Shown piece by piece: positions 3,536-58,503 of a stretch of DNA of 64,000 bases. Below the pieces are notes generated by a model. The model did not search any database. It was given only the letters and a program-made list of their open reading frames with translations, and was not told the origin of the DNA. The position numbers and the translations under genes were made by a program. This DNA is from Candidatus Staskawiczbacteria bacterium (GTDB lineage: Bacteria; Patescibacteriota; Minisyncoccia; Minisyncoccales; Staskawiczbacteraceae): NCBI GenBank assembly GCA_026395295.1, contig JAPLYZ010000007.1, positions 370 through 64,369 of the forward strand. The letters are read 5' to 3'. Each line of letters begins with the position of its first letter. The stretch's first letter is position 1.

Positions 3536-4684
3536 TTAAGCCGTAAAATCGTTAACTATTTTTATTATACTTTTCTTAAAATTTTCAATAGAAAATTTAT
3601 GGCTAACCTCTGCCAGCCGTACGCGTAAATTTTCCTGCGCGTTAGTGTCGCATAAGACGGCTTCAATCTTCTTGACCGCATCATTGATGTTATCATAAAT
3701 TAGGGCTGAATCATTTACTATTTCTGTTTGACCGCCGCCGTTCGGAGCAAAAACAATGCAACCAGCGTTAACCATTTCGGCAACTGCAATGCCAAACGGC
3801 TCGTTGCTTCGGCCGGAAATGCCGTATTTATATCTTGCAATAAAATTCAGTTTATCTTGCCCGTACATAGGACCTTCGAAAAAACACCAATCTTTATTAT
3901 TCCCGCAAATCTTTTGAACTTTTTTTGCATAATCTGGGTCGTCAATTTTACCTATGATATGCAAATTAACACTCGGTCTTGTTTTCCTGACTTCTTTTAC
4001 TATTTCTATTATTTTTTCTACCTGTTTTTCAGGAGATATTCTGCCAAGACACACAAAATCTTCTTTTTTTTCCATCCAAGCAATGTATTGACAATCGCCC
4101 GCTATACAAGGATAAATAACCCCCGATTTAATTTTGTAAAATTCTTCTATAATTTGTTTCGTCCAACAAGAGTTCGATATTGTGATATTTTTCTTCCACC
4201 CATCTTCATAAGTCCCAGATAAATTCTCGGCAAGTTTTAGGTAACATTTTCTTAAGAATGATTTTTCATAAAGCCACTTCCGAGCTTTATTCGGCTCAGG
4301 ATCATACATTCTCCGCAATTCATCATTAAAAGATAAATCCGCAATAAATTGAATCCCTTTTTTGCCAAAATCCATAACATTGTATGTTGAAATCACAATG
4401 TCAAAATCAGAGGCTACTTTTTTGGCAAATCTTGCCAACCTATACGACCTCAACGCATCAAATCTATTCTTAAATAATCTTGGCGCTTTGATCTCTACAG
4501 TTTTGATTTCGCCCTCTTTAATATCAGTGCCATAATATTCATTAAGCTTCCCTAAATCGGCCTTGTCTCCACTAATCAAAGAGAGATCATAGTCTTTTTT
4601 CAACACCTCTGCAACCCAAAGAGCCACGGACTCAGAGCCGCCCAACTTTAATTGTGGATGAATAATAGCTATTTTTTTTCTCAT
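3536..4684 (-). CDS. GT4-family glycosyltransferase
   Basis: 382-aa ORF. C-terminal GRSNEPFGIAVAEMVNAGCIVFAPNGGGQTEIV is GT4-like. Only 3 nt separate it from the upstream gene. Confidence 0.7.
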   Translation of the reverse strand: MRKKIAIIHPQLKLGGSESVALWVAEVLKKDYDLSLISGDKADLGKLNEYYGTDIKEGEIKTVEIKAPRLFKNRFDALRSYRLARFAKKVASDFDIVISTYNVMDFGKKGIQFIADLSFNDELRRMYDPEPNKARKWLYEKSFLRKCYLKLAENLSGTYEDGWKKNITISNSCWTKQIIEEFYKIKSGVIYPCIAGDCQYIAWMEKKEDFVCLGRISPEKQVEKIIEIVKEVRKTRPSVNLHIIGKIDDPDYAKKVQKICGNNKDWCFFEGPMYGQDKLNFIARYKYGISGRSNEPFGIAVAEMVNAGCIVFAPNGGGQTEIVNDSALIYDNINDAVKKIEAVLCDTNAQENLRVRLAEVSHKFSIENFKKSIIKIVNDFTA

Positions 4685-5506: not shown

Positions 5507-6823
5507 TTATTTTTTACTTATTTTTCCAATTACCTCCAAAAAACGCCTGCTCGCATCATATCTTGTTTCAATGTAGTCGTTGTTAAATCCAACTTTGAAT
5601 TCTTCTGCGTCAGGAGCTTTGGCTATTTTTTCAAGATATTGCGCTACTTCTTCGACAGTTTTAAATGACTTATTGCAGGCTCCAAGTTTCTCGAAATTGT
5701 CCACATAAGCCGGATAATTCATAAGTTGCAAAGAAATTTTCGACCTTATAGCCGCCTCCACCAATGAAGTTGAAGAAAAACTTATAAATATATCTGCTTT
5801 GTCTAATGTATTCTCCAATTTCTCCTTCTCCGGAGTAAATCGTATGTTCGGCAGTTTTTTCATTAGAAATCCTCTGTCTTCGGCATAATGGTGTCTGTAA
5901 ATAAACTTTATGTTCAATTTTTTGCAAATTTCAGAAAGATAGTTTATGGTTCCCAATTTCACTTTCAGTAACTCTTTGTTGTGTCTTTGTAGGTCTTGAC
6001 CTAAATAACAAACAACAAGAGCGCTCTTATTCGCCAGACTGCCACCTTTCTTTTCAATTGTATGAGGATAACCCAAAACATAAACATTCTCCGGTTTCCT
6101 CATATTTTTAGTCAAGCAAATTTCTTTAAAATAATTTCCCCAAACTAAAACATACTCTGCTGTCTTAAAATCAAGCACGGGGTTGGGCATATTATGTATC
6201 GCGTGCTGAATCACCAAAACAGGAATGCCTAACTTCCTCCCTATCATTACAATCGCCCGTTCAATCGGAAATACATCGTATGTTAGGACGATATAATCAG
6301 GCTTTACAATCATCAGCCTCTCTTCAATTTTAAAAACTAACCGTCTAAGATATTTTATGTCTTTATTTTCCAAATAAAAAATGACCAACTGCTCTAAATC
6401 ATTAGTCTGTATATAACCCGTTAAATTAAGAATGGCGAACAATCTGTCTTTCTTGCCTTGAGCAATTAATCTTGTTTGGTAATGTTTTTTAGCCTCAGAA
6501 ATAATATGAAAATACTTTGACTCTTCAAACAAAATTTTCTTTTTCCCATCTTTTTTTAGCCTACTATACAATTTTAAAAAATTTTTATCTAAAAAATCGA
6601 GCAATATTCTATATCTATTATAATTCTCAATATGGCGTTTTTGCCCCTCAATAAAAGAACTCTCGTTAATATCTTTAGCCCACTTTATCTTCTTGTATGT
6701 GTTCAGATAATCAAGTATCAAAAAATCGGCAACATCTTTATCGCTCCAAAGATCGAAGTTGTTAAATCCTAATTTTTCGTAATATTGTAAATCAAAAATG
6801 TTATTTTCTTCCGCTTTTTCCAT
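5507..6823 (-). CDS. Hypothetical protein, tandem paralog A (C-terminal half looks GT-B/Rossmann-like)
   Basis: 438-aa ORF, collinear with the neighbouring 447-aa ORF (YYEKLGFNNFDLWSDKDVADFLILDYLNTY vs YYKKLGFNKPESWNSDDLSQFLIWDFLNAY; ENVYVLGYP; IFISFSSTSLVEAAIRSKISLQL vs IFVGYSSTALVEAAMRKKIVLQL). I recognise no family. Confidence 0.5.
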   Translation of the reverse strand: MEKAEENNIFDLQYYEKLGFNNFDLWSDKDVADFLILDYLNTYKKIKWAKDINESSFIEGQKRHIENYNRYRILLDFLDKNFLKLYSRLKKDGKKKILFEESKYFHIISEAKKHYQTRLIAQGKKDRLFAILNLTGYIQTNDLEQLVIFYLENKDIKYLRRLVFKIEERLMIVKPDYIVLTYDVFPIERAIVMIGRKLGIPVLVIQHAIHNMPNPVLDFKTAEYVLVWGNYFKEICLTKNMRKPENVYVLGYPHTIEKKGGSLANKSALVVCYLGQDLQRHNKELLKVKLGTINYLSEICKKLNIKFIYRHHYAEDRGFLMKKLPNIRFTPEKEKLENTLDKADIFISFSSTSLVEAAIRSKISLQLMNYPAYVDNFEKLGACNKSFKTVEEVAQYLEKIAKAPDAEEFKVGFNNDYIETRYDASRRFLEVIGKISKK

Positions 6824-8144
6824 ATTTTTTTTCTTCTATCTCGCTTATTATCCCTAAAAAACGATTGCCCGGGGTATCTCTTGTTTCCACATAATCATTA
6901 TTAAACTTTAATGCCGATTCCTTCAAGTAAGGGCTTTCGACCATCTTCGTCAAATAACTTTCCAGCTCATTGATACTTTTAGACGATTTATCGCAAACTC
7001 CCAGCTCCTCCAAATTATCCAGCTCTATGGGCAAATCCATAAGTTGCAAAACAATTTTCTTCCTCATTGCAGCCTCAACTAACGCGGTCGACGAATAACC
7101 AACAAAAATATCTGCTCTGCTGAACGTTTCTTCAATTCTTTCGTTCTTTTTAGTAAATTCCACCCCCGACAAATTATTTTCCATAGCCACCCTGTCTTCC
7201 CCCCATGGATGAGGACGATAAATAAATTTAAGCCCCAAATTTTTACATATTAAAGAAAGTCTTTTCACTGTTTCTATTTTAATCTTTAAAAAATTTTTAT
7301 TAAACCTCTCGAAATCCTGGGCCAGATAACAGACCACATAATTTCTTTTTTTATCGGTCTTGTTTTCTTGGTTTTTTGGAGAATATGGATAACCCAAAAC
7401 ATAAACATTTTCCGGCTCTCTTATATTATTATCAACGTATAAATCTTTAAAATGCTTGCCCCAAACTAAGATATAATCTGCTGATTTTCCGCCCATCAGT
7501 GGCTCTAATAAGGGTCCATATTTCATGGATAAAATTCCGTCTTGTATTTCCATGGTAGTAATGCCAAGTTTTCTGGCCACCAGCACAATCGCTTTTTCAA
7601 CCGGGAGCAAATCATTTTTCAGTATTATATAATCAGGCTTAATAATCTTTAACCTTTTCTCCACAAGCTCTATCAACCTATAAAGATATTTTAAATTTCT
7701 TTCTTTTAAATAGTGAAACACATTTCTATTCAATTCGTTCGTATTCATATATCCGGAAAAATCCTTTCTGATGAACAACCTGTCTCTTTTCCCTTGGTCA
7801 ATCAATCCTATCTGATAATTCTTGCCGGTTTCAGATATAACAGAAGGACATCTTGAATTTTGGAACAAAACTTTTTTTTTGCTCTGCTTGCCATTAAACA
7901 ACACCTGCAATCTAAATATAGCCTCATCCAAAAAATCAAAAAACATCTGACTCGCGCTGTTTTTCTCTGCCAAATATTTGCTATCGGCAATAAATGATTC
8001 CGGTATATCTTTTCCCATAACGGTATTACTGTACGCATTCAAAAAATCCCAAATTAAAAATTGAGATAAATCATCACTGTTCCATGACTCGGGCTTGTTA
8101 AATCCTAATTTTTTATAGTAAGAATAGTTTCTGACTAAATTCAT
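6801..8144 (-). CDS. Hypothetical protein, tandem paralog B
   Basis: 447-aa ORF. Full-length similarity to 5507..6823; overlaps it by 23 nt. Confidence 0.5.
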   Translation of the reverse strand: MNLVRNYSYYKKLGFNKPESWNSDDLSQFLIWDFLNAYSNTVMGKDIPESFIADSKYLAEKNSASQMFFDFLDEAIFRLQVLFNGKQSKKKVLFQNSRCPSVISETGKNYQIGLIDQGKRDRLFIRKDFSGYMNTNELNRNVFHYLKERNLKYLYRLIELVEKRLKIIKPDYIILKNDLLPVEKAIVLVARKLGITTMEIQDGILSMKYGPLLEPLMGGKSADYILVWGKHFKDLYVDNNIREPENVYVLGYPYSPKNQENKTDKKRNYVVCYLAQDFERFNKNFLKIKIETVKRLSLICKNLGLKFIYRPHPWGEDRVAMENNLSGVEFTKKNERIEETFSRADIFVGYSSTALVEAAMRKKIVLQLMDLPIELDNLEELGVCDKSSKSINELESYLTKMVESPYLKESALKFNNDYVETRDTPGNRFLGIISEIEEKKYGKSGRK

Positions 8145-44185: not shown

Positions 44186-44213
44186 AGTTTATCAGAAAAT
44201 AATTCTGTGTCAA
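44186..44213 (-). promoter_or_regulatory. Sigma-70-like promoter downstream of htrA
   Basis: Minus strand TTGACA (44213..44208), 16 nt spacer, TAAACT (44191..44186). An overlapping TATAAT lies at 44186..44181. Confidence 0.4.
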
Positions 44214-44250
44214 CCCCGTTAGAAGTCTTGAACAAGACTTCTAACGGGGT
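44213..44250. repeat. Perfect 17-bp-stem hairpin just after the htrA stop
   Basis: accccgttagaagtctt-gaac-aagacttctaacggggt. No U-tract follows on the minus strand, so it is more REP-like than a canonical terminator. Confidence 0.8.
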
Positions 44251-44256
44251 CAATGG

Positions 44257-45612
44257 CTAAGATGACCGTTCTCCCAAGGTTACAATTACATCCTGTTCTT
44301 TGCCGTCCCTTAAAATTCGCAAAGTAACTTTATCTCCGGCATTATGTTTTTGTATCATTTTTGACATTGGACTATCGGTGGTAATTTTCTCTCCGTCTAC
44401 CTTCAGAATAACATCTTTTTCTTTAATTCCAGCTTTTTCCGCCACAGAACCAGAAGTCACAGCTAATTCTCCTTTACTCCCCTTAAGGACTAGCGCTCCA
44501 TAGTCAACCGACAAATTATACTTTTCTTTAACCTGCTCATCAACCAAAATATATCTTACCCCCAAAAACGGATAAACAATTTTATTTGTTTTGGCAACTT
44601 GGTCAATATCTTTTTTCGCCATATTTATTGGAATAGCAAAACCAATAGCCTCTGCCCCTTGCGCCATAGCTGTATTAATACCAATAACTTCACCCCTCAA
44701 ATTCAATAAGGGTCCGCCAGAATTTCCAGAGTTAATTGCCGCATCTGTCTGTATTATGTCTTCCAATGTTTCCGAAAATGAACCCAACTGATCAGAAGCA
44801 GAAATTGTTCTGCCGAGACCCGAGATCACGCCCACCGAAACTGTGTTGCGGAATTGACCCAGCGCGTTTCCGATTGCAATAGCTGTCTGACCTATTTGTA
44901 TCCCCGAAGAATCTCCCAGAGTTACCGGCTGAAAAATTGTCCCGCCATTCGACGGGATCCCGCTGTGGCGGGAAATTTTTATAACTGCCAAATCCTGAAC
45001 CGGGTCAAGCGCCAAAACTTTTGCCGGATACTTTTGTCCATCGTTTGTAAAAACCGTATAATCTGCCTTGTTATCTGAAACAACGTGCTTATTCGTTAAA
45101 ACCAGCCCATCAGCTGAAACAATAAATCCAGACCCTGCTCCTATTTGCTGATACTTGGTTCCTTTTTGCACCTGTTGGGGAATTTGGATATCAAAGGGTC
45201 CAAAAAAATCTCCGAACGGATTATCACTGCTACCGTTATTGCCAAATGGATCTACGAGTTGCTGTTCGTAAACCGGAACGTTTTTAGAAATAACAATACT
45301 GACAACAGATGGCGAAACTTTTTTAGCGGCATCAATAATCGCTTGCTCGTAAGAGATGCCTGAAACGTAAGGTTTTGTGGCGGACTGATCGTTGTTCTTT
45401 TCTTTTTTTGGCGCTGTTGTTTCAAAATACTTTAGAAATGCTTGTGTTTCCGACGGAAAATAATGCAGAGCGGTAATACCAACATAAATACCAATAATGT
45501 ACCCTGCAACAACCAAGAGCAAAGCGCCTAAAAACACCTTATTTTTAATAATTTTTAAGCTTTTATTTTTAACTTCTGAAAAGTTATATTGTGGCAAATT
45601 GTACAAACTCAT
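44257..45612 (-). CDS. htrA: HtrA/DegP-family serine protease with PDZ domain
   Basis: 451-aa ORF. N-terminal TM helix; catalytic triad contexts TNKHVV, DLAVIKI and GNSGGPLLN; C-terminal PDZ (GIKEKDVILKVDGEKI). Confidence 0.9.
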   Translation of the reverse strand: MSLYNLPQYNFSEVKNKSLKIIKNKVFLGALLLVVAGYIIGIYVGITALHYFPSETQAFLKYFETTAPKKEKNNDQSATKPYVSGISYEQAIIDAAKKVSPSVVSIVISKNVPVYEQQLVDPFGNNGSSDNPFGDFFGPFDIQIPQQVQKGTKYQQIGAGSGFIVSADGLVLTNKHVVSDNKADYTVFTNDGQKYPAKVLALDPVQDLAVIKISRHSGIPSNGGTIFQPVTLGDSSGIQIGQTAIAIGNALGQFRNTVSVGVISGLGRTISASDQLGSFSETLEDIIQTDAAINSGNSGGPLLNLRGEVIGINTAMAQGAEAIGFAIPINMAKKDIDQVAKTNKIVYPFLGVRYILVDEQVKEKYNLSVDYGALVLKGSKGELAVTSGSVAEKAGIKEKDVILKVDGEKITTDSPMSKMIQKHNAGDKVTLRILRDGKEQDVIVTLGERSS

Positions 45613-51166: not shown

Positions 51167-52660
51167 CTAAATAAACTTTCGAGTATATTTTCTGTTCAAA
51201 TAACTTGTGACAGAAGCTATTGTTAAATAGGAAATGGCCAGCCATGCCCAATGAATGTTTTGAACTGTTTTCATCGCCCATGGTTGCGAGAAAAAATCTA
51301 TCACTTTTACAAAATATGTCAGCAAAAGCCAGCAAGGAACAGATAAAATCCAGCCCAACCAACTGGAAAAAACTCCGGCTATTGACGCTAAAAATCCAAG
51401 ACCCATAAGCCATGAAACAATAGGCAAAACCAAAAAATTTGTAACAGGCGCCACAAAAGATATATTCCCGAAGTTATAAACCATAACGGGTAAGGTGAAA
51501 ATTTGAGCCGCAAAAGTTGTTGAAACAATACTGACCAGGTTTTCCGCTTTATCTTTGGTAAAAACTTTTATAAATTTTTTAATAAGCGGGTCTAAATATA
51601 TCAACCCCAAAACAGCCAAAAAAGAAAGCTGAAACCCAACATCATAAATTAGAAGCAAAGGGTTTATCAAAAGCATTATTGAACAAGCTAAAGTTATCAA
51701 CCTAGAACTCATGGTTTGTCTGCCAATTTTTTGGGATAAAAGATAGACTCCGCCCATAATGCCGGCCCTTACTCCAGAAGACGGCAAACCGGTCAGCACA
51801 ATATATGTACAGATAAAAACCATTGCAATATAAAAAGCCTGCCCTCTCCAGAAACCCATGGCCAGCAACAGAAACATAATAATTGAAGCCAAAATCACAA
51901 CATGCGTGCCGGAAACAGCTATGACATGACGCAGTCCGGTGATATTAAGCTTTACCTTCAAATCATTTGTCATGGCTCCATTATCTCCCAATATTGTTCC
52001 TTCTAAAATTGAACTTTGCGGAGGTAAAAAATTATGCTTGATGCTTTCCCTTATCTTTCCTTTGAAAAACAAAATCCAAGAATAAATTTTTTGAAATATA
52101 CTCGGCTTTATTTTGCCTACTTCCCCGCCCGAGGCGGGTCCGCCTAGGGCGGAAATCTTAGGGAACCCCATTATAGAGTAAATATGGTCTTTTAATAAAT
52201 AATTTTTATAATTAAAAGTATCGGTAACTGATGGAGTTTCCAGTTTACCTGTAATTTTTACTGTGTCTAAATACTTATATTCAGGATATCGGTTGGTGGT
52301 TACCAGAATTACACTATCGCCAACTTCTACTTTCAACTTCTGGAAAGTGTCTCTGACATCCGGCTCGCCTGCAACTACGCCGGTCATAAAAACTTGCCCC
52401 CTCCCATTAAACTTACTTAATTTATCATTAGCGATATTGAATTCTGAAATCTGAACCCTCACAATGCCGACGACTATCAATAATAAACATAACCCTGCGA
52501 CAGAGCTTACCCTCTTTACTAAAAAAGATAAAAAAACAAGAACGACCCCCAAAAATAAAATCCCCCAAATAAAATTTTGAGGAATTTTTATTACAGATTC
52601 CAAAAATATTCCCGCAACAAATGACAGACAAAAATAAAATAATATCTTAGACGCGCTCAT
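51167..52660 (-). CDS. comEC: ComEC/Rec2-family DNA-uptake channel protein (no metallo-beta-lactamase domain)
   Basis: 497-aa polytopic ORF. ITGLRHVIAVSGTHVVIL competence-domain motif; N-terminal OB/DUF4131-like region. Confidence 0.8.
   Translation of the reverse strand: MSASKILFYFCLSFVAGIFLESVIKIPQNFIWGILFLGVVLVFLSFLVKRVSSVAGLCLLLIVVGIVRVQISEFNIANDKLSKFNGRGQVFMTGVVAGEPDVRDTFQKLKVEVGDSVILVTTNRYPEYKYLDTVKITGKLETPSVTDTFNYKNYLLKDHIYSIMGFPKISALGGPASGGEVGKIKPSIFQKIYSWILFFKGKIRESIKHNFLPPQSSILEGTILGDNGAMTNDLKVKLNITGLRHVIAVSGTHVVILASIIMFLLLAMGFWRGQAFYIAMVFICTYIVLTGLPSSGVRAGIMGGVYLLSQKIGRQTMSSRLITLACSIMLLINPLLLIYDVGFQLSFLAVLGLIYLDPLIKKFIKVFTKDKAENLVSIVSTTFAAQIFTLPVMVYNFGNISFVAPVTNFLVLPIVSWLMGLGFLASIAGVFSSWLGWILSVPCWLLLTYFVKVIDFFSQPWAMKTVQNIHWAWLAISYLTIASVTSYLNRKYTRKFI
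52124..52153. repeat. Two tandem GC-rich mini-hairpins inside comEC
   Basis: cccgcc-cga-ggcggg (52124..52138) and tccgcc-tag-ggcgga (52139..52153), translated in frame as SALGGPASGG. Confidence 0.7.
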
Positions 52661-52675
52661 CCTTATTGTACAGTA

Positions 52676-52711
52676 GTCTTACAAATATACAAGCTTATAT
52701 ATTTGTAAGAC
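52676..52711. promoter_or_regulatory. 36-bp palindrome A-left (gtcttacaaatata-c-aagctt-a-tatatttgtaagac)
   Basis: 14-bp perfect arms around an AAGCTT core. It ends 1 nt before the stop codon of 52713..53240 and 15 nt upstream of the comEC ATG. Confidence 0.8.
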
Positions 52712-52712
52712 G

Positions 52713-53240
52713 TTAGATTTCTTCAATTATAAATACTTTAACGTAATTATCTAATGAATGCATCTGCAACAATTGCTCTGTTTTCCCTGAAACATCATAA
52801 GGTGAAACCCAAACGCTTTGTTGAAGTAATTTATAGCCAAGATTAATCAAAATGCTCTTTAATAGATTCCTTGCCTTTCTACGCTTTTCAGGAATATCAA
52901 AAATTAACATTATCCACTTGCCATCTTTTCTCTTCTTCTTTCCTTCGATAGCAAAACTTGCTTTCAGCGCCTTACTTATCCCATCTTTTGTAAGAATTAT
53001 AGCTTTTTTATTTTCTAAATTTTTTATCTTTATGTAGCCTTTTCTCTTAAGATAATAAATAAGGTTTCTGAACTCCCTTTTGTTTCTGTCGTTTCTGTAT
53101 TTTTTATAAATTGGGTTTTGCGGACCTGGCAAGAAGTTCCTCATAGTAGGCGCTCTGAACGCAAAATCAGCAATATTGCCCGCACTGCTCAAAAAATTAT
53201 AGACATCCCAAAGAAACTGATCTGTGATTGATATTCTCAT
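52713..53240 (-). CDS. wHTH + Cas2-like (PaaX-type) DNA-binding protein, paralog 1
   Basis: 175-aa ORF. wHTH-like FRNLIYYLKRKGYIKIKNLENKKAIILTKDGISKA, then a Cas2/PaaX-middle-domain-like core KWIMLIFDIPEKRRKARNLLKSILINLGYKLLQQSVWVSPYD. Confidence 0.6.
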   Translation of the reverse strand: MRISITDQFLWDVYNFLSSAGNIADFAFRAPTMRNFLPGPQNPIYKKYRNDRNKREFRNLIYYLKRKGYIKIKNLENKKAIILTKDGISKALKASFAIEGKKKRKDGKWIMLIFDIPEKRRKARNLLKSILINLGYKLLQQSVWVSPYDVSGKTEQLLQMHSLDNYVKVFIIEEI

Positions 53241-53290
53241 TTTAGTATCATCTTAATATCGTTCGTCTCCTACATTTTATATTTTATCAC

Positions 53291-53328
53291 AGTCTTACAA
53301 ATTTAGAAGCTTGTATATTTGTAAGACT
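53291..53328. promoter_or_regulatory. 38-bp palindrome A-right (agtcttacaaat-ttag-aagctt-gtat-atttgtaagact)
   Basis: 12-bp perfect outer arms with the same half-site and AAGCTT core as 52676..52711. It lies 50 nt upstream of the ATG at 53240, with TAAAAT boxes between. Confidence 0.8.
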
Positions 53329-53365
53329 ATTTATCATGGGAAAAGTAGATAAAAACAGACAAGAA

Positions 53366-53394
53366 TTGACAAAAAAATTAATTAGGATTAACAT
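53366..53394 (+). promoter_or_regulatory. Sigma-70-like promoter for 53437..53727
   Basis: TTGACA (53366..53371), 17 nt spacer, TAACAT (53389..53394). Confidence 0.5.
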
Positions 53395-53436
53395 AAAAAT
53401 AAGTTAACAATTCGAACTTTGACAAAAGGATTCCCG

Positions 53437-53727
53437 ATGAATAAATTGAATGCAATTTTTGATAAGATGGCAAGGGCAATCGCGCCATTTTCATGGCCCT
53501 TGGCAATTATCTGCAGCTTGCTAACGTTCGCTTACCAATCGACTAAGCTGCATAATAGCCCAACATTCACTGCCGTCTTTGCCGGCGTTTTTCTCTCCTG
53601 CTCAATCTTTTTATGGGCCGAGTTCTGGATAAGGCGCAATCGGCTTTATCCCCTTGCCGGGCTTTGCTCTTCAATCTGGTTGCTTATGAGTACGATGCTT
53701 TTCATCAAGCTCATCGAGCTGTTATAA
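53437..53727 (+). CDS. Small membrane protein (hypothetical)
   Basis: The ORF-track start at 53419 is TTG; I prefer ATG at 53437 (MNKLNAIFDK) with aagga 8 nt upstream. About three hydrophobic helices. Looks GC-richer than its flanks by eye (no count made). Confidence 0.5.
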   Translation: MNKLNAIFDKMARAIAPFSWPLAIICSLLTFAYQSTKLHNSPTFTAVFAGVFLSCSIFLWAEFWIRRNRLYPLAGLCSSIWLLMSTMLFIKLIELL

Positions 53728-53728
53728 T

Positions 53729-53759
53729 GCCCCCCCCCGGCTTTAAGGGGGCTTTTTTT
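53729..53759 (+). terminator. Rho-independent terminator of 53437..53727
   Basis: gccccc...gggggc stem followed by TTTTTTT. It overlaps the nrdG stop region. Confidence 0.65.
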
Positions 53760-54462
53760 ATCTAAGTTGGCAGAGTTTAAAATATGGCGAAATTTCTTTG
53801 ACAATTTCATCCAAAAAATCTTTTTTGAATGGTTTTACTTTCTCGAATTCCGGGTCAATGGTTTTTTCTGCCCTAAAATTTTGCAAATAGTATTTAACAT
53901 TTTTACCGCCAATCCATTTTGCAATTTCCAAAAAATCTTCTTTCGTGTGTATTGTAGGCACAACAGTTGTGCGAAATTCAAAATCCAATTTCCCATTTTT
54001 CAAAAAACCAACACTTTCTTTTATTTTGTCTATTGTTATCCCTTCTGTCATTAAGCTTTGATAAGCAGGATTTTTAGGGGAGGCCTTGATGTCCATTGCA
54101 ACGTAATCTATTAAATTTTTGCTAATTAAATCTTCCAAAATTTCCGGGTTTGAACCATTGGTATCTAACTTAACGAAATATCCTAAAATTTTAATTTTTT
54201 CTATAAACTGAGCCAACTCTTTATTTATTGTCGGCTCTCCTCCACAGACTACGACCCCTTCTAAAAGTCCTTGCCGGCTTTTTAAAAAATCAAAAAACTC
54301 TTTTTCAGAAATTCTCGGCTGTTTTACAATTTTCAAAGGTAAAACCAGCTCCGAGGAATAACACCACGGACATCTGAAGTTACACCCAGCCAAAAAAACA
54401 ACACAGGCAATTTTCCCCGGGTAATCAATTAAAGTTGTTTTTTGCAAGCCGGCGATTATCAT
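53758..54462 (-). CDS. nrdG: Anaerobic ribonucleoside-triphosphate reductase activating protein (radical SAM)
   Basis: 234-aa ORF. VVFLAGCNFRCPWCYS (CxxxCxxC) and VVCGGEPT. Downstream of nrdD. Confidence 0.85.
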   Translation of the reverse strand: MIIAGLQKTTLIDYPGKIACVVFLAGCNFRCPWCYSSELVLPLKIVKQPRISEKEFFDFLKSRQGLLEGVVVCGGEPTINKELAQFIEKIKILGYFVKLDTNGSNPEILEDLISKNLIDYVAMDIKASPKNPAYQSLMTEGITIDKIKESVGFLKNGKLDFEFRTTVVPTIHTKEDFLEIAKWIGGKNVKYYLQNFRAEKTIDPEFEKVKPFKKDFLDEIVKEISPYFKLCQLR

Positions 54463-54475
54463 ACTTTAATATAAC

Positions 54476-54506
54476 AAAAAAGCCCCTTACTTAAAAGGGC
54501 TTTTTT
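54476..54506 (-). terminator. Terminator-like hairpin between nrdD and nrdG
   Basis: agcccctt-actt-aaaagggct flanked by an A-run (54476..54480) and a T-run (54501..54506). On the minus strand the hairpin is followed by TTTTT. Confidence 0.55.
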
Positions 54507-54509
54507 ATT

Positions 54510-56678
54510 TTATGCAGTTACTTTTTGTTCCACGGGCGAACTTTCTTTCACTGCTTCTGTCGGGCAGATAAACTCCTTTCGTTCTTTGTATTCTTCCTGC
54601 TTGCCTTTATGCCATTGCTGAACAGGCCTGATATAACCCACTACCCTTGAATAAACCTCGCAAGGCTGTTTTATGGTGCACTGAGGACACTCGAAATGTT
54701 CGCCGGAGATATAACCGTGTGTCGGACAAATTGAGAATGTTGGAGTCAAAGTAATATATGGCAAGCTATAATTTTCACATATTTTTCTCACTAAATTCTT
54801 TGCCATATTAGGATCAGAAATTTTCTCTCCTAAAAATATGTGCAAAACAGTTCCACCGGTATATTTTGTTTGAAGGTCGTTTTGCAGTTCAAGAGCTTGA
54901 AAAATATCGTCAGTAAATCCAACAGGCAACTGGCTGGAATTAGTGTAATAAGGGACTTCCTTGGTGCCGGCTGTAACAATATCAGGATATTTTTCTTTAT
55001 CGGTTTTCGCCTGCCTATAACTTGTCCCTTCTCCCGGGGTTGCTTCCAAATTATATAAATTCCCCGTTTCTTCCTGGAATTTAACCATTTTGTCTCTCAT
55101 AAAGTCCAAAATTTCAATCGCAAACTTTTTGCCCTTTGGGGTTGTTATGTCTTCTTCTAAAAAGTTAATCAAAGCTTCGTTCATGCCCATTATTCCAATA
55201 GTCGAAAAATGGTTCCCAAAATAAGTGTTTCTCATCTTTTTCATTTCCTCTAAATAGTGCCTCGAATAAGGGTAAAGTCCTTTTTCCATGAAGTCGTCTA
55301 AAGCTTTTCTTTTAATTTCCAAACTTTCTTTTGCCAGCTCCATCAAATGGCTAAGCTTATCAAAAAATTCTGATTTTGTTTTTGATGTGTATCCGATTCT
55401 TGGCAGGTTTATAGTAACTACTCCAATTGATCCTGTTTTTGGCGAAGAGCCGAATAATCCTCCTCCTCTTTTGTAAAGTTCTCTGTTGTCTAAACGCAAT
55501 CTGCAGCACATTGACCTGGCATCATCCGGACTCATGTCGGACTGGATAAAGTTGGAAAAATAATTTATGCCGTATTTTGCCGTTGCCTCCCACATTGCCG
55601 CCAAATTTGGATTGTCCCACTCAAAATCTTTAGTAATTGAGACTGTCGGAATTGGAAAAGTAAACGGCCTGCCGGATGCATCGCCCTCCATCAAACCTTC
55701 GTAGAACGCTCTGATAAACATATCCATTTCCGGCTGAAAATCTCCATAAGTTTCGTCTTGAACTTCGCCTCCTATAATAATCGGCTGTTTCGCCAAAAAT
55801 GCCGGCGGTTTGATGTCTAAGGAAACATTCAAAAATGGTGTTTGAAAACCAACGCGAGTTGGCACCATGCAACTGTACAAAAATTCCTGCATCACCTGCT
55901 TAACTTGTTTGTAATCTAATTTGTCATATCTTATAAACGGAGCCAAAAGCGTATCAAAGTTGGAAATGGCATTTGCTCCGGCTGTTTCTCCTTGCAAAGT
56001 GAACAAAACATTAACCAATTGTCCCATGGCAGTTCTCAAATGCTTTGGAGGTTTGCATTCTATTTTTCCGGGAACTCCCCCAAATCCTTTTATTAAAAAA
56101 TCATACAAATCCCATCCTGCGCAATATGGCGCCAAAAGTTCTAAATTATGAATATGAAAATCTTCGTTTGCCGCCGCATCTCTTATTTCTTTGGGATAAA
56201 TTTTATTCAGCCAATATTTCTTGGAAATGTAAGAGCCCACATACTGGTTTAATCCCTGCAAGGAAAAAGTCATATTGGCATTCTCTTTTACCTGCCAATC
56301 AATTTCTTTAAGATAACTGTCTATTTTTTCCGATGACTCGTCGCTGACTTTTGCCGCTTCGCGGATTGCCCTTCTTTGCTCTCTGTACAAAACATAGGCC
56401 TTGGCTGTTTCAACTAAACCCTCCAGCATAAGCGCCTCCTCAACAATGTCTTGTATCTGCTCTATGCTCGGAGTTTCGTCTTTTTTAAATCTGCGGTTCA
56501 GTAAGCTGACAACTTTATCTGAAACTCTTTTTGAAACTACACCATCTCCCTGGTTTGTCGCCACAACTGCTTTGTGAACTGCCTCTGCAATTTTTTCCTG
56601 CTCAAAATTAACAACCCTTCCGTCTCTTTTACGAACTTTTTCCACGTGATTTTTTACCTCCTCTTTTTCTGATGTCAT
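54510..56678 (-). CDS. nrdD: Class III (anaerobic) ribonucleoside-triphosphate reductase with N-terminal ATP-cone
   Basis: 722-aa ORF. ATP-cone (VRKRDGRVVNFEQEKIAEAV), C-terminal Zn-ribbon cysteines (CPTHGYISGEHFECPQC) and glycyl-radical motif SRVVGYIRPV. Confidence 0.9.
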   Translation of the reverse strand: MTSEKEEVKNHVEKVRKRDGRVVNFEQEKIAEAVHKAVVATNQGDGVVSKRVSDKVVSLLNRRFKKDETPSIEQIQDIVEEALMLEGLVETAKAYVLYREQRRAIREAAKVSDESSEKIDSYLKEIDWQVKENANMTFSLQGLNQYVGSYISKKYWLNKIYPKEIRDAAANEDFHIHNLELLAPYCAGWDLYDFLIKGFGGVPGKIECKPPKHLRTAMGQLVNVLFTLQGETAGANAISNFDTLLAPFIRYDKLDYKQVKQVMQEFLYSCMVPTRVGFQTPFLNVSLDIKPPAFLAKQPIIIGGEVQDETYGDFQPEMDMFIRAFYEGLMEGDASGRPFTFPIPTVSITKDFEWDNPNLAAMWEATAKYGINYFSNFIQSDMSPDDARSMCCRLRLDNRELYKRGGGLFGSSPKTGSIGVVTINLPRIGYTSKTKSEFFDKLSHLMELAKESLEIKRKALDDFMEKGLYPYSRHYLEEMKKMRNTYFGNHFSTIGIMGMNEALINFLEEDITTPKGKKFAIEILDFMRDKMVKFQEETGNLYNLEATPGEGTSYRQAKTDKEKYPDIVTAGTKEVPYYTNSSQLPVGFTDDIFQALELQNDLQTKYTGGTVLHIFLGEKISDPNMAKNLVRKICENYSLPYITLTPTFSICPTHGYISGEHFECPQCTIKQPCEVYSRVVGYIRPVQQWHKGKQEEYKERKEFICPTEAVKESSPVEQKVTA

Positions 56679-56750
56679 ATTTTTCTTGGGACAAAAAAAT
56701 GGCCTAAGCCTTAATTAACTTTTAATATTATCTCACTATTACTATACTAC

Positions 56751-56778
56751 ATTTTACTCCAAAGAAAAATCGTGTCAA
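56751..56778 (-). promoter_or_regulatory. Sigma-70-like promoter of nrdD
   Basis: Minus strand TTGACA (56778..56773), 16 nt spacer, TAAAAT (56756..56751). Leader is about 65 nt. Confidence 0.5.
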
Positions 56779-56940
56779 ATTTTATTTCCGAGAGAAGCCC
56801 TGTGGATAAACTAATTAAACACTCAAAAATATGTTTTCGCAGGAAACTAAGCAATAAAAACCACCACTTACTAAAAACTCCAGTAAAAATTCCGGTGATA
56901 TGCAACGAATAATAAACAACGTATAATATATACAATGTAT

Positions 56941-56980
56941 AGTGGTAGCGTTTTTGTCGTTCGCCAAAAAACTTACCACT
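56941..56980. promoter_or_regulatory. 40-bp degenerate palindrome B-left (agtggtagcgtttttgtcgttcgccaaaaaacttaccact)
   Basis: Identical to 57571..57610 at 36 of 40 positions. It starts 11 nt after the stop of 56992..57570 and lies about 160 nt upstream of the nrdD -35 box. Confidence 0.8.
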
Positions 56981-56991
56981 ACCACCTTAAA

Positions 56992-57570
56992 CTAATTTAA
57001 CTTAAATCTAAATTTCAAACGCTCTTCACCGTCGATAAAATCCGCTAAAACGAACTTCACATATTTCTCCAATTTTAATAATTTAACCAGCGCCGCTACT
57101 TCTCTTCGGCAATCATATGGATAAACGAATAAACTTTTCTGAAACTCATAAAATCCTGCAGACTTAAATCTATACCTTAGCGCATTCCTCCCCTTTCTAC
57201 ACTCCTCGGGAATATCAAAAGCAAATATTCTCCACTTCTCATCCCATTTTTCTTTTCTATTCTCAAGCCTTCTAAAAGTAATATTTAACGCTCTTAACAT
57301 CCCCTTTTCAGTTAAAGAAACAAGCACCGAGCCATTGTAGTTTTCCTTTTTCTTTATTAATTTTTGTTTGTTTAGGTCTCTAATTCCATCTTTCATTTTC
57401 CCTGGACTAATTTCATTTTTCCAATGGTCAAAATGTTCTGAAATCCAAAACTTCTTTTTCGCCCTATAGCTAAAACCGTAATCTACAGAATCGTACAAGT
57501 GCAATAAAATTTCCTCAATTATAGAATTTTTCATTAATTTAATTATACCGCAAATAATATCAAAAGTCAT
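56992..57570 (-). CDS. wHTH + Cas2-like (PaaX-type) DNA-binding protein, paralog 2
   Basis: The ORF-track start (57609) lies inside the palindrome. Plausible starts are ATG 57570 (MTFDIICG...) or ATG 57534 (MKNSIIEEIL...), the latter preceded by TATAAT at 57547..57542. Cas2-like core KWRIFAFDIPEECRKGRNALRYRFKSAGFYEFQKSLFVYPYD aligns with paralog 1. Confidence 0.6.
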   Translation of the reverse strand: MTFDIICGIIKLMKNSIIEEILLHLYDSVDYGFSYRAKKKFWISEHFDHWKNEISPGKMKDGIRDLNKQKLIKKKENYNGSVLVSLTEKGMLRALNITFRRLENRKEKWDEKWRIFAFDIPEECRKGRNALRYRFKSAGFYEFQKSLFVYPYDCRREVAALVKLLKLEKYVKFVLADFIDGEERLKFRFKLN

Positions 57571-57610
57571 AGTGGTAGCGTTTTTGTCGTTCGACAAAAA
57601 CGCTACCACT
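57571..57610. promoter_or_regulatory. 40-bp palindrome B-right (agtggtagcgtttttgtcg-tt-cgacaaaaacgctaccact)
   Basis: Perfect 19-bp arms with a 2-nt centre. It directly abuts the first in-frame ATG of 56992..57570. Confidence 0.85.
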
Positions 57611-57633
57611 ACTAATACAAAGTATCAATACAA

Positions 57634-57667
57634 CAAAAAACCGCCGAAAAAAATTTAGCGGTTTTTT
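57634..57667 (-). terminator. Bidirectional-looking rho-independent terminator after 57674..57886
   Basis: aaccgc...gcggtt hairpin flanked by an A-run and a T-run. Confidence 0.65.
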
Positions 57668-57673
57668 GAATCT

Positions 57674-57886
57674 TTAAATTGCCGCGATTTTTGCCATAAA
57701 ATAGTCAAACTTTTCCTTGCTCATCTGAATAACCGACTTTGGCTTTCTGGAAATCTTTTTTCGCTTGGCAGCAACTTTTTTCCCTTGCCTCGCCGTAGCT
57801 TTACGCGAAGGCGAGTTCTTCGTGACAACTTTTCTCTTTTTCGCAACCACCTTTTTCTTAGTTGCGACTTTTTTGACTTTTTTCAT
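57674..57886 (-). CDS. Small lysine-rich basic protein (histone-H1-like tail), hypothetical
   Basis: 70-aa ORF. KKVKKVATKKKVVAKKRKVV...KKVAAKRKK followed by a short conserved-looking C-terminus SKEKFDYFMAKIAAI. Confidence 0.45.
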   Translation of the reverse strand: MKKVKKVATKKKVVAKKRKVVTKNSPSRKATARQGKKVAAKRKKISRKPKSVIQMSKEKFDYFMAKIAAI

Positions 57887-58412: not shown

Positions 58413-58423
58413 AATTTTACCGT

Positions 58424-58455
58424 ACCCTAAATTTAGAACGTTCTATTTTTAGGGT
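58424..58455. promoter_or_regulatory. 32-bp near-palindrome between ftsZ and the 142-aa ORF
   Basis: accctaaatttagaac / gttctatttttagggt, 14 of 16 arm positions complementary. It ends 11 nt upstream of the ATG at 58412. Confidence 0.5.
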
Positions 58456-58503
58456 ATGCTTAGTTTTTTTGTATTTTCGACCTTTTTTATTTATTTATAT
58501 TTA

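Follow-up and report, generated by a model that had tools for sequence, protein, structure and literature searches.

Short PaaX-family proteins encoded between two copies of their own palindrome: candidate autorepressor cassettes beside nrdDG and comEC in a Staskawiczbacteria genome

Why should a small bacterial gene carry the same long palindrome both before its start and after its stop codon, and why should its paralog nearby do the same with a different palindrome? This question is raised by a stretch of 64,000 nucleotides (nt) of Candidatus Staskawiczbacteria bacterium (GenBank assembly GCA_026395295.1, contig JAPLYZ010000007.1, forward-strand positions 370 to 64,369), the whole of which we call the window, where two such genes, paralog 1 and paralog 2, enclose nrdD and nrdG, and the former stands directly before comEC. 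The original prediction, made from the sequence alone, described both proteins as a winged helix-turn-helix (wHTH) followed by a Cas2-like or PaaX-middle domain, and offered either a looping or roadblock autoregulatory switch acting on comEC and nrdDG, or a selfish REPtron-like unit. The best explanation in our view, with a probability of about 60%, is that both units are self-contained cassettes of a short PaaX-family autorepressor, laid out in the order site, promoter, gene and site. Each unit consists of one gene with its upstream (U) and downstream (D) palindromes, which we take as putative operators:

52713-53240, strand -: paralog 1, a 175-amino-acid (aa) short PaaX-like protein, wHTH plus Cas2-like PaaX_M
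53291-53328: U1, upstream operator of unit 1, a 38-bp palindrome AGTCTTACAAAT..AAGCTT..ATTTGTAAGACT
52675-52712: D1, downstream operator of unit 1, directly next to the stop codon (52713-52715)
56992-57534 (start revised from 57570), strand -: paralog 2, a 180-aa short PaaX-like protein
57570-57611: U2, upstream operator of unit 2, perfect 20-nt arms with a 2-nt centre, TAGTGGTAGCGTTTTTGTCG-TT-CGACAAAAACGCTACCACTA
56940-56983: D2, downstream operator of unit 2, 8 nt past the stop codon, its gene-distal arm degenerate

The arms of palindrome 1 match at 17/19 and 17/18 positions in its two copies, and U2 and D2 are 91% identical. The palindrome-2 half-site occurs 3 times in the window against 0 expected from shuffles, and a 12-mer of palindrome 1 occurs 4 times against 0.56 expected, with no half-site of either palindrome beyond the flanking copies in the 64 kb. 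The claim that each gene has a private palindrome before and after it, and nowhere else in the window, is thus upheld by the repeat finder and the half-site searches. The two palindromes had also been called unrelated; their sequences do differ, but they share one architecture. A correction was needed at one end of paralog 2: its stop stands, while its start, first placed at 57570, is almost certainly the ATG at 57534, because its homologues are 179-181 aa long and alignable from the second methionine (MKNSIIEE...). With this start, U2 no longer overlaps the beginning of the gene, lying 35 nt before the ATG, and the overlap of U2 with the promoter, through the -35 element, is kept.

Regarding the nature of the proteins, both match the Pfam family PaaX_M (PF20803, 'PaaX protein central Cas2-like domain') with E 1.6e-20 for paralog 1 and 1.8e-21 for paralog 2 (73-76 bits versus a cut-off of 24); they are 28% identical to each other end to end (E 2e-18) and are the only 2 family genes in the window. 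The AlphaFold model, computed with a 28-sequence alignment as input (mean predicted local distance difference test 83.6), shows a helical N-terminus with a wing hairpin (helices 43-51 and 54-66, beta hairpin 70-83), and then a beta-alpha-beta-beta-alpha-beta domain. Foldseek against the PDB put E. coli PaaX (8a39) on top, with E 2.7e-5 over 184 alignment columns, and at lower ranks Cas2 proteins (target-normalised template modelling score 0.45-0.59), the PaaX-like structures 3l09 and 3kfw, and wHTH proteins including SSV1 F-93 and MepR, while a sequence search of the PDB matched PaaX alone, and weakly. The proposed architecture of a wHTH plus a Cas2/PaaX-middle domain is therefore well founded on the Pfam match, the model and the top structural hit.

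Both proteins end at 175-180 aa, directly past PaaX_M, where the C-terminal effector domain of PaaX would start; Pfam found no PaaX_C in either paralog, and the NCBIfam PaaX equivalog TIGR02277 gave a score of 31 versus a cut-off of 264. The NCBIfam cas2 model TIGR01573 scored 26.7 with paralog 1 and 18.5 with paralog 2 (cut-off 24.5), and it is because the first score is just above the cut-off that the paralog 1 sequence carries a Cas2 name: database entry P0121, from a Candidatus Staskawiczbacteria metagenome-assembled genome (MAG), is identical to it and is named 'CRISPR-associated endonuclease Cas2' at NCBI. This name is a misannotation, probably a systematic one across the family in Patescibacteria genomes, and family members are at present annotated as 'hypothetical', 'PaaX' or, wrongly, 'Cas2'. 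Membership in a defence system was dropped, given that PADLOC returned Cas2 models alone (E to 1e-6), and so was a CRISPR association, as a direct-repeat scan found no CRISPR-like repeat array in the 64-kb window, in agreement with the original prediction. These proteins are an offshoot of the PaaX family that has neither the effector domain nor the paa context of PaaX, and they are neither CRISPR Cas2 proteins nor REPtrons.

The layout of the two units turned out to be general. An exhaustive HMMER scan gave a family of 3,785 clusters at 50% identity (E <= 1e-3), nearly all of the top 150 clusters being 170-200 aa long, and at least 553 family genes are present when one genome per species is taken. 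All loci kept come from Patescibacteria-type MAGs, where several paralogs per genome are common, with at least 8 in one assembly. For each of 77 usable loci, the 250 nt before the gene were matched without gaps to the 250 nt after it; the best match was scored, and the 99th percentile of non-cognate upstream/downstream pairs served as threshold. The cognate pairs had a median score of 21, versus a mean of 9.3 ± 1.9 in the non-cognate ones, and 53/77 loci lay above the threshold; most of those below it are also flanked by two palindromes, which agree in their outer and central blocks and have 26-31/38 identity. The bracket is likewise present in more distant members of the paralog-2 clade, and cognate palindromes stand on both sides of P0005 and P0131, two orthologues in other contexts with 82% identity to paralog 2 and 71% to paralog 1, respectively. 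Strong 38-bp palindromes number 71 in 774 kb of related loci, 59 of them at most 300 bp from a family gene, and 0 in shuffled sequence. The bracket is a property of the family and not a local oddity: the search in related MAGs that had been proposed found the gene with its two palindromes family-wide, and orthologous loci keep their brackets. In the same-genome DNA searched (10-66 kb per genome for most loci), the flanking pair of site copies stands alone, except that 2 loci have a third copy nearby. No description of the family or of its layout was found in the searchable full-text literature on PaaX, Cas2-like proteins and Patescibacteria or candidate phyla radiation, so within that literature the layout is indeed not assignable to a described system.

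Some single loci deserve separate mention. In L081, a third copy of the locus operator (6992-7029, 36/38) lies inside an open reading frame (ORF) read as RNase HII, in an apparent inserted segment. In the pilus cluster of L213, the near-perfect palindromes at ~2904-2941 and ~3593-3630 differ by symmetric changes in both arms (29/38 identical), and the downstream one may be the operator of a different paralog, which would hint at cross-regulation. In L003, a 17-nt tandem duplication (GAGATGGTTTGTTTAAT twice, 5577-5610) comes directly past the downstream operator.

The anatomy of the site was obtained by aligning the 53 upstream/downstream pairs on their dyads, with the following agreement between the two copies:

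Centre, ±1 to 4 from the dyad: upstream equals downstream in 87-98%; ACGRYCGT, AAAGCTTT, AACGTT and others
Middle, ±5 to 14: upstream equals downstream in 57-77%; variable
Outer block, ±15 to 17: upstream equals downstream in 81-87%; often TATAC...

The outer blocks of the 38-bp sites are conserved at ±13 to 18. The E. coli PaaX operator is TGATTC(N27)GAATCA, 39 bp in total (PMC9493321), and the geometry found here agrees with it in the conserved outer inverted blocks and in the length of 38 versus 39 bp.

The sites also change together with the proteins. Similar proteins tend to have similar sites (for the outer block, Mantel r 0.35 at p ~5e-4), a correlation that linkage alone could yield. 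At the level of single residues, in paralog 1 numbering, the correspondence is as follows:

Residue 59 (recognition helix, second turn) and the outer bases: N, TCTT; K, TAC[TC]; Q, TAGC or TAAC
Residue 118 (right after the invariant FDIP) and dyad positions 2-3: E, CG (28/32); Q, AA(G); K, CA/AA(C); S, CA(G)
Residue 141 (beta2-beta3 turn) and dyad position 1: K or R, A (17/18); Q, G (21/24); H, C

In pairs with an identity of 50% or more, residues 59, 118 and 141 have odds ratios of 8.5, 10.2 and 11.0, versus 0.5-1.5 for three control residues. The switches recur in close relatives, as in L020 and L017 (E, CGATCG) versus L026 (Q, AAGCTT), which have the outer half-site TATACTCTAA in common. 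Residue 118 lies three positions past the Asp that we take to be aligned with the Cas2 catalytic Asp; this Asp is invariant in the family alignment, and E. coli PaaX likewise has an acidic residue at its position. Since these residues co-vary with site bases, the proteins very probably bind their flanking sites, and the places of the three residues point to a readout of the outer blocks by the wHTH and of the centre by the Cas2-like dimer.

The upstream copies are placed as operators of an own promoter would be. Their dyad lies at a median of 54 nt before the ATG, and a -10-like hexamer starting at +15 from the dyad is found on the gene side of 17/53 upstream copies versus 4/53 on the far side; there is a second register, at +23/24, to which unit 1 belongs. 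The downstream dyad lies at a median of 24.5 nt past the stop codon, and the 38-bp downstream site starts -6 to +2 nt from the stop in 25/53 loci. The promoter-like features of the two units are:

53281-53289, strand -: predicted U1 promoter, an extended -10-like TGATAAAAT just past U1, in the +23/24 register
52665-52670, strand -: -10-like TACAAT on the D1 side, sharing the register of U1 and lying 4 nt ahead of the comEC start codon (ATG at 52660)
57542-57570, strand -: U2 promoter-like site, ATGACT-17-TATAAT, the -35 overlapping the edge of U2

The -10 on the U2 side ends 7 nt before the ATG at 57534, which would give a near-leaderless transcript. As an observation apart, comEC (52660-52670), paralog 2 (57534-57547) and many family genes have a -10-like box that ends 4-8 nt ahead of the start codon, and no Shine-Dalgarno sequence, which suggests that leaderless mRNAs are frequent in these organisms.

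Put together, these features would make up the following cassette. A short PaaX-family repressor, having the N-terminal winged helix and the Cas2-like PaaX_M dimerisation domain without the C-terminal effector domain, would sit as a dimer on its cognate palindrome of ~38 bp, its two recognition helices reading the outer blocks at ±13 to 18 from the dyad, and its Cas2-like dimer placed on the dyad and reading the central 6-8 bp. The upstream copy, overlapping the gene's own promoter, would serve negative autoregulation. The downstream copy, at the stop codon or a few nt from it, would close the cassette, most likely cooperating with the upstream copy through a loop of ~620 bp and/or working as a protein roadblock that limits read-through, and in some cassettes, including unit 1 before comEC, it would also overlap the promoter of the next gene. 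Such a cassette would be passed on and diversify as one unit, and would now and then move as a block. The looping or roadblock autoregulatory switch of the original prediction accordingly lives on as our leading reading, a probable one, while its extension to a two-sided switch over nrdDG does not, in view of the nrdD promoter beyond D2 and the relatives of the units elsewhere, both given below.

Several observations weigh against this autorepressor cassette and should be kept in mind. The upstream-downstream distance shows no helical phasing (Rayleigh p > 0.17), which is neutral for a 620-bp loop and gives it no positive support. Regulation by itself does not explain why small genomes keep at least 8 paralogs whose detectable sites mostly flank their own gene alone, nor why a locus has two copies closer to each other than to those of positional orthologues, at weakly constrained positions too. 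Neither an effector domain nor a signal is evident. Finally, the covariation is confounded by shared ancestry, given that the sites are physically linked to the genes; the control residues and the switches recurring in close relatives speak against ancestry as the whole explanation.

A different reading, unlikely though conceivable, makes the protein a local regulator, the downstream copy being mainly the operator of the next gene's promoter, so that the protein would co-regulate itself and one housekeeping target, here comEC and nrdDG. On strand -, starting from the U2 side, the gene order in the window is the 70-aa Lys-rich gene, U2, paralog 2, D2, nrdD and nrdG, followed by a 102-aa membrane ORF on strand +, U1, paralog 1, D1 and comEC, and the ORF listing and Pfam confirm these surroundings as first described:

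51167-52660, strand -: comEC, Competence and DUF4131 domains (Pfam), ATG at 52660
53758-54462, strand -: nrdG, radical-SAM NrdG (Pfam), a cassette neighbour and not a member
54510-56678, strand -: nrdD, NRDD and ATP-cone (Pfam), a cassette neighbour and not a member
56751-56778, strand -: nrdD promoter, TTGACA-16-TAAAAT, conserved in L092

For comEC this reading has something to offer, since the TACAAT at D1, in the U1 register and 4 nt before the ATG, makes co-regulation plausible, and comEC is possibly transcribed from a D1-associated promoter. A -10-like hexamer is also present at +15/+16 on the distal side of 12/53 downstream copies, and the downstream neighbour is co-directional in 44/53 loci (83%); upstream neighbours, however, are co-directional in 88%, and therefore the downstream figure is background. 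The downstream copy is retained next to the stop codon in 8/53 loci whose neighbour is convergent, and in L214, where the convergent neighbour encodes RNase J, both copies agree at 37/38 positions. From D2 it is another 160 nt to the conserved nrdD promoter (TTGACAC...GGAGTAAAATGTAGTA, common to L092), which D2 does not overlap. The neighbours are housekeeping genes, several of them assigned by eye from sequence (dprA-[unit]-topA, mutM-[unit]-holA, ligA, leuS, ftsW, murF, femAB, tpiA, prepilin peptidase, rmuC), and close orthologues have unrelated downstream genes. We count the downstream copy as part of the cassette rather than of the neighbouring gene.

A switch specific to nrdDG was dropped because relatives of unit 2 lie between map and tpiA, L092 has no unit before nrdD, and the nrdD promoter is beyond D2. 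Among the fetched loci L001-L092, the window alone has two family genes in one locus, which together with the relatives elsewhere makes the flanking of nrdDG by two units look coincidental. The placement of the two units around nrdDG thus appears incidental, and in this window nrdDG is not under a special two-sided switch.

Sites without a family gene at their side bear on the local regulator as well as on mobility. The window has one:

58421-58458: TACCCTAAATTTAGAACGTTCTATTTTTAGGGTA, a solo palindrome of the family type, flanked by ftsZ and a 142-aa gene; centre GAACGTTC, outer TACCCTAAA

It ends 9 nt before the ATG of the 142-aa gene, which encodes an acidic coiled-coil-like protein, with no adjacent family gene, and it is likely either the operator for a paralog encoded elsewhere or the scar of a lost cassette. 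L035 has a solo site between a 146-aa gene and the next gene, and L099 has one of unit-2 type, 37/38 identical, upstream of the leader of the glycyl-tRNA synthetase gene (glyS); these sites are intergenic and just upstream of genes, as is the one at 58421, so control of genes in trans probably exists, which favours a local regulator. Solo sites of unit-2 type also occur in L125, 3 nt past the stop of an unrelated gene, and in L168. A metagenome scan with the 16-mer GGTAGCGTTTTTGTCG returned 120 stretches, mostly chance single matches, with 5 real ones (L099, L125, L135, L168 and L203), and tblastn found no degraded family genes beside the solo sites, which could be trans-acting operators or excision scars. 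Separately, the region 4000-4380 of L099, from the solo operator to the glycyl-tRNA synthetase gene, is a long structured leader, by its look a T-box candidate.

More doubtful is the reading of the units as selfish mobile cassettes, where the palindromes would be the element ends, recognised and possibly nicked or synapsed by the wHTH-Cas2-like protein, with autoregulation secondary. Its best evidence is relocation as a block within a conserved backbone, ftsZ-nrdD-nrdG-comEC-DUF6938-346aa-MGDG synthase. In the window and in L090/L092, whose protein is 79% identical, unit 1 lies between nrdG and comEC; in L003 (71%) and L008 (66%) its relatives are flanked instead by the 346-aa gene and the MGDG synthase gene. 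The empty junctions are clean, 6 nt in the window and a 4-nt overlap in L003, with no palindrome in them. The closest relatives of unit 2 (79-83% identical, with nearly the same palindrome) lie at map-x-[unit]-tpiA in three assemblies, and the DNA alignable between them and unit 2 starts and stops at the outer palindrome edges; L092, on the same backbone, has 569 nt between ftsZ and nrdD, without unit 2 and without the 70-aa and 142-aa genes. The second line of evidence is concerted evolution of the site copies, with 31-37/38 identity within a locus versus 23-33/38 between positional orthologues, even at weakly constrained positions; in unit 1 all four arms read CTTACA, where L090, L003 and L008 carry CTTGTA, a change of GT to AC. 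The solo sites as possible excision scars or targets, the many paralogs per genome, and the invariant Cas2-aligned Asp with adjacent residues co-varying with dyad bases add to the case.

Against it, Pfam and NCBIfam returned no recombinase or transposase family for either protein; no near-identical multi-copy units or dispersed sites were seen in the related loci; synteny groups are long-lived across species (dprA-[unit]-topA in 5 genomes, mutM-[unit]-holA in 4); both copies are equally well maintained, the upstream one being integrated with the promoter; and E. coli PaaX has an acidic residue at the Asp position too. Insertion into a target palindrome is argued against by the empty junctions without a palindrome, though the solo sites are compatible with that model. 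We hold it improbable, then, that the units are semi-autonomous elements whose protein recognises the palindromes bounding its own gene, places its Cas2-like dimer with the invariant Asp pair on the dyad, and synapses, nicks or cuts them; and it is equally a long shot that such events would drive the concerted evolution of the ends, the occasional excision that leaves solo sites, and the relocation. This is nevertheless the sole reading that easily explains concerted evolution, relocation, solo sites and many self-directed paralogs in reduced genomes. What remains of the selfish unit first suggested is therefore the relocation as a block and the concerted evolution of the sites, and not a REPtron-like origin, which fails on the lack of dispersed copies (10-66 kb per genome, most loci) and of any transposase-family match for either protein.

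Very improbable, lastly, is an RNA element, in which the palindromes would act as transcript hairpins that end transcription, stabilise the RNA or serve as a translational operator to which the Cas2-like domain binds: a simple scan flagged U2 and D1 as terminator-like hairpins, compensated upstream/downstream differences are modestly enriched (32 versus 21.3 ± 3.6 expected), and the family genes of the window have no other obvious terminator, where other genes nearby have canonical ones, but the AT-rich stems are followed by no consistent T-tract such as an intrinsic terminator has and the uncompensated differences, 177, are far above the compensated ones, so that a function at the DNA level fits better, while the upstream copy, with its predicted -10 inside or after it, is probably untranscribed, for which reason an RNA function cannot explain the sameness of the two copies, and Rfam gave no family at gathering score, the palindromes and the 260-nt nrdD leader included, which is also why a riboswitch or known RNA in either was dropped.

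Some further features of the surroundings are recorded here for completeness. The 70-aa ORF just upstream of unit 2 (57674-57886) is extremely Lys-rich and histone H1-like, with its own canonical terminator at 57634-57668. A GC-richer palindrome with 21-nt arms, TCAACCCCGTTAGAAGTCTTG AA CAAGACTTCTAACGGGGTCAA, at 44210-44253, lacks a T-run and differs in type from the family sites; it lies 3 nt past the stop of a 451-aa gene (44257-45612, strand -). The NrdD orthologue in a related genome (L090 374-3532 / L092 1637-4795) has 1052 aa, with the Pfam match Intein_splicing and a faint LAGLIDADG_3, and the NrdD of the window has 722 aa and no intein match.

In summary, few DNA-binding families besides this one have expanded in Patescibacteria, organisms with tiny genomes and hardly any described gene regulation, and with each gene accompanied by two copies of its own site the family offers a ready-made recognition code. 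A Cas2-like domain reading DNA sequence at the dyad, as the covariation suggests, is not described for PaaX or Cas2 in the searchable literature. The operator-gene-operator rule, together with concerted evolution and block relocation, would make these units a natural set of orthogonal, self-insulated repressor cassettes, of interest both for biology (looping, roadblock, selfish maintenance) and as parts for synthetic biology. Should the mobile reading be true, they would be a new kind of mobile or self-maintaining element, built on a free-living, sequence-specific relative of Cas2 and relevant to the origin of the CRISPR adaptation module.

Compared with known systems, the closest in structure is PaaX, the phenylacetyl-CoA-responsive regulator of E. 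coli and Pseudomonas, which likewise has an N-terminal winged helix and a Cas2-like middle or dimerisation domain, a long operator of ~38-39 bp with outer inverted blocks (TGATTC-N27-GAATCA), and autorepression by occupying its own promoter. Unlike PaaX, the family proteins are without the PaaX_C effector domain, with 175-180 aa versus ~316 aa; no paa or aromatic catabolism genes lie nearby, the neighbours being instead comEC, nrdDG, ftsZ, tpiA, topA, holA, ligA, leuS and pilus genes; their private specificities number in the dozens; the operator is repeated at the stop codon; and the Cas2-like domain apparently reads the operator centre in a sequence-specific way. Cas2 itself has in common the ferredoxin-like fold and a YDI/FDI motif, and its dimer lies along duplex DNA in Cas1-Cas2 complexes. 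The family differs from it in the extra N-terminal wHTH, the apparent sequence-specific readout, and its genes, which stand alone, with housekeeping genes around them both in the window and in 80+ loci of relatives; as for linkage to cas1 or CRISPR, the 64 kb hold no array and the identified neighbours are housekeeping genes, no dedicated cas1 HMM scan of the window ORFs having been made.

In function, the closest analogy is lambda CI, a repressor gene between its own operators OR and OL, where cooperative looping tunes autoregulation, and heteroimmunity provides diversified private specificities. CI differs in its helix-turn-helix plus LexA-like C-terminal domain, its 2.4-kb loop and its multiple sub-sites per operator, and lambda is a phage switch, whereas no phage context was seen around the family cassettes, whose looping is a conjecture. 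REPtrons resemble the units in having a gene between two palindrome copies specific to the gene's lineage. There, a RAYT (HUH Y1 transposase) gene is flanked by repetitive extragenic palindromes, which are dispersed genome-wide in tens to hundreds of copies, and here the fold is wHTH plus PaaX_M, with essentially two flanking copies alone in the same-genome DNA searched (10-66 kb per genome for most loci). Finally, pdif or Xer-dependent modules are, like the cassettes, discrete modules bounded by two sites and relocating as blocks, with one or more genes between two dif-like sites of ~28-38 bp in a palindrome-like arm-centre-arm order; their sites are bound by the host XerC/XerD and are common to many modules, whereas in the cassettes described here each site co-varies with the protein encoded inside its own module.

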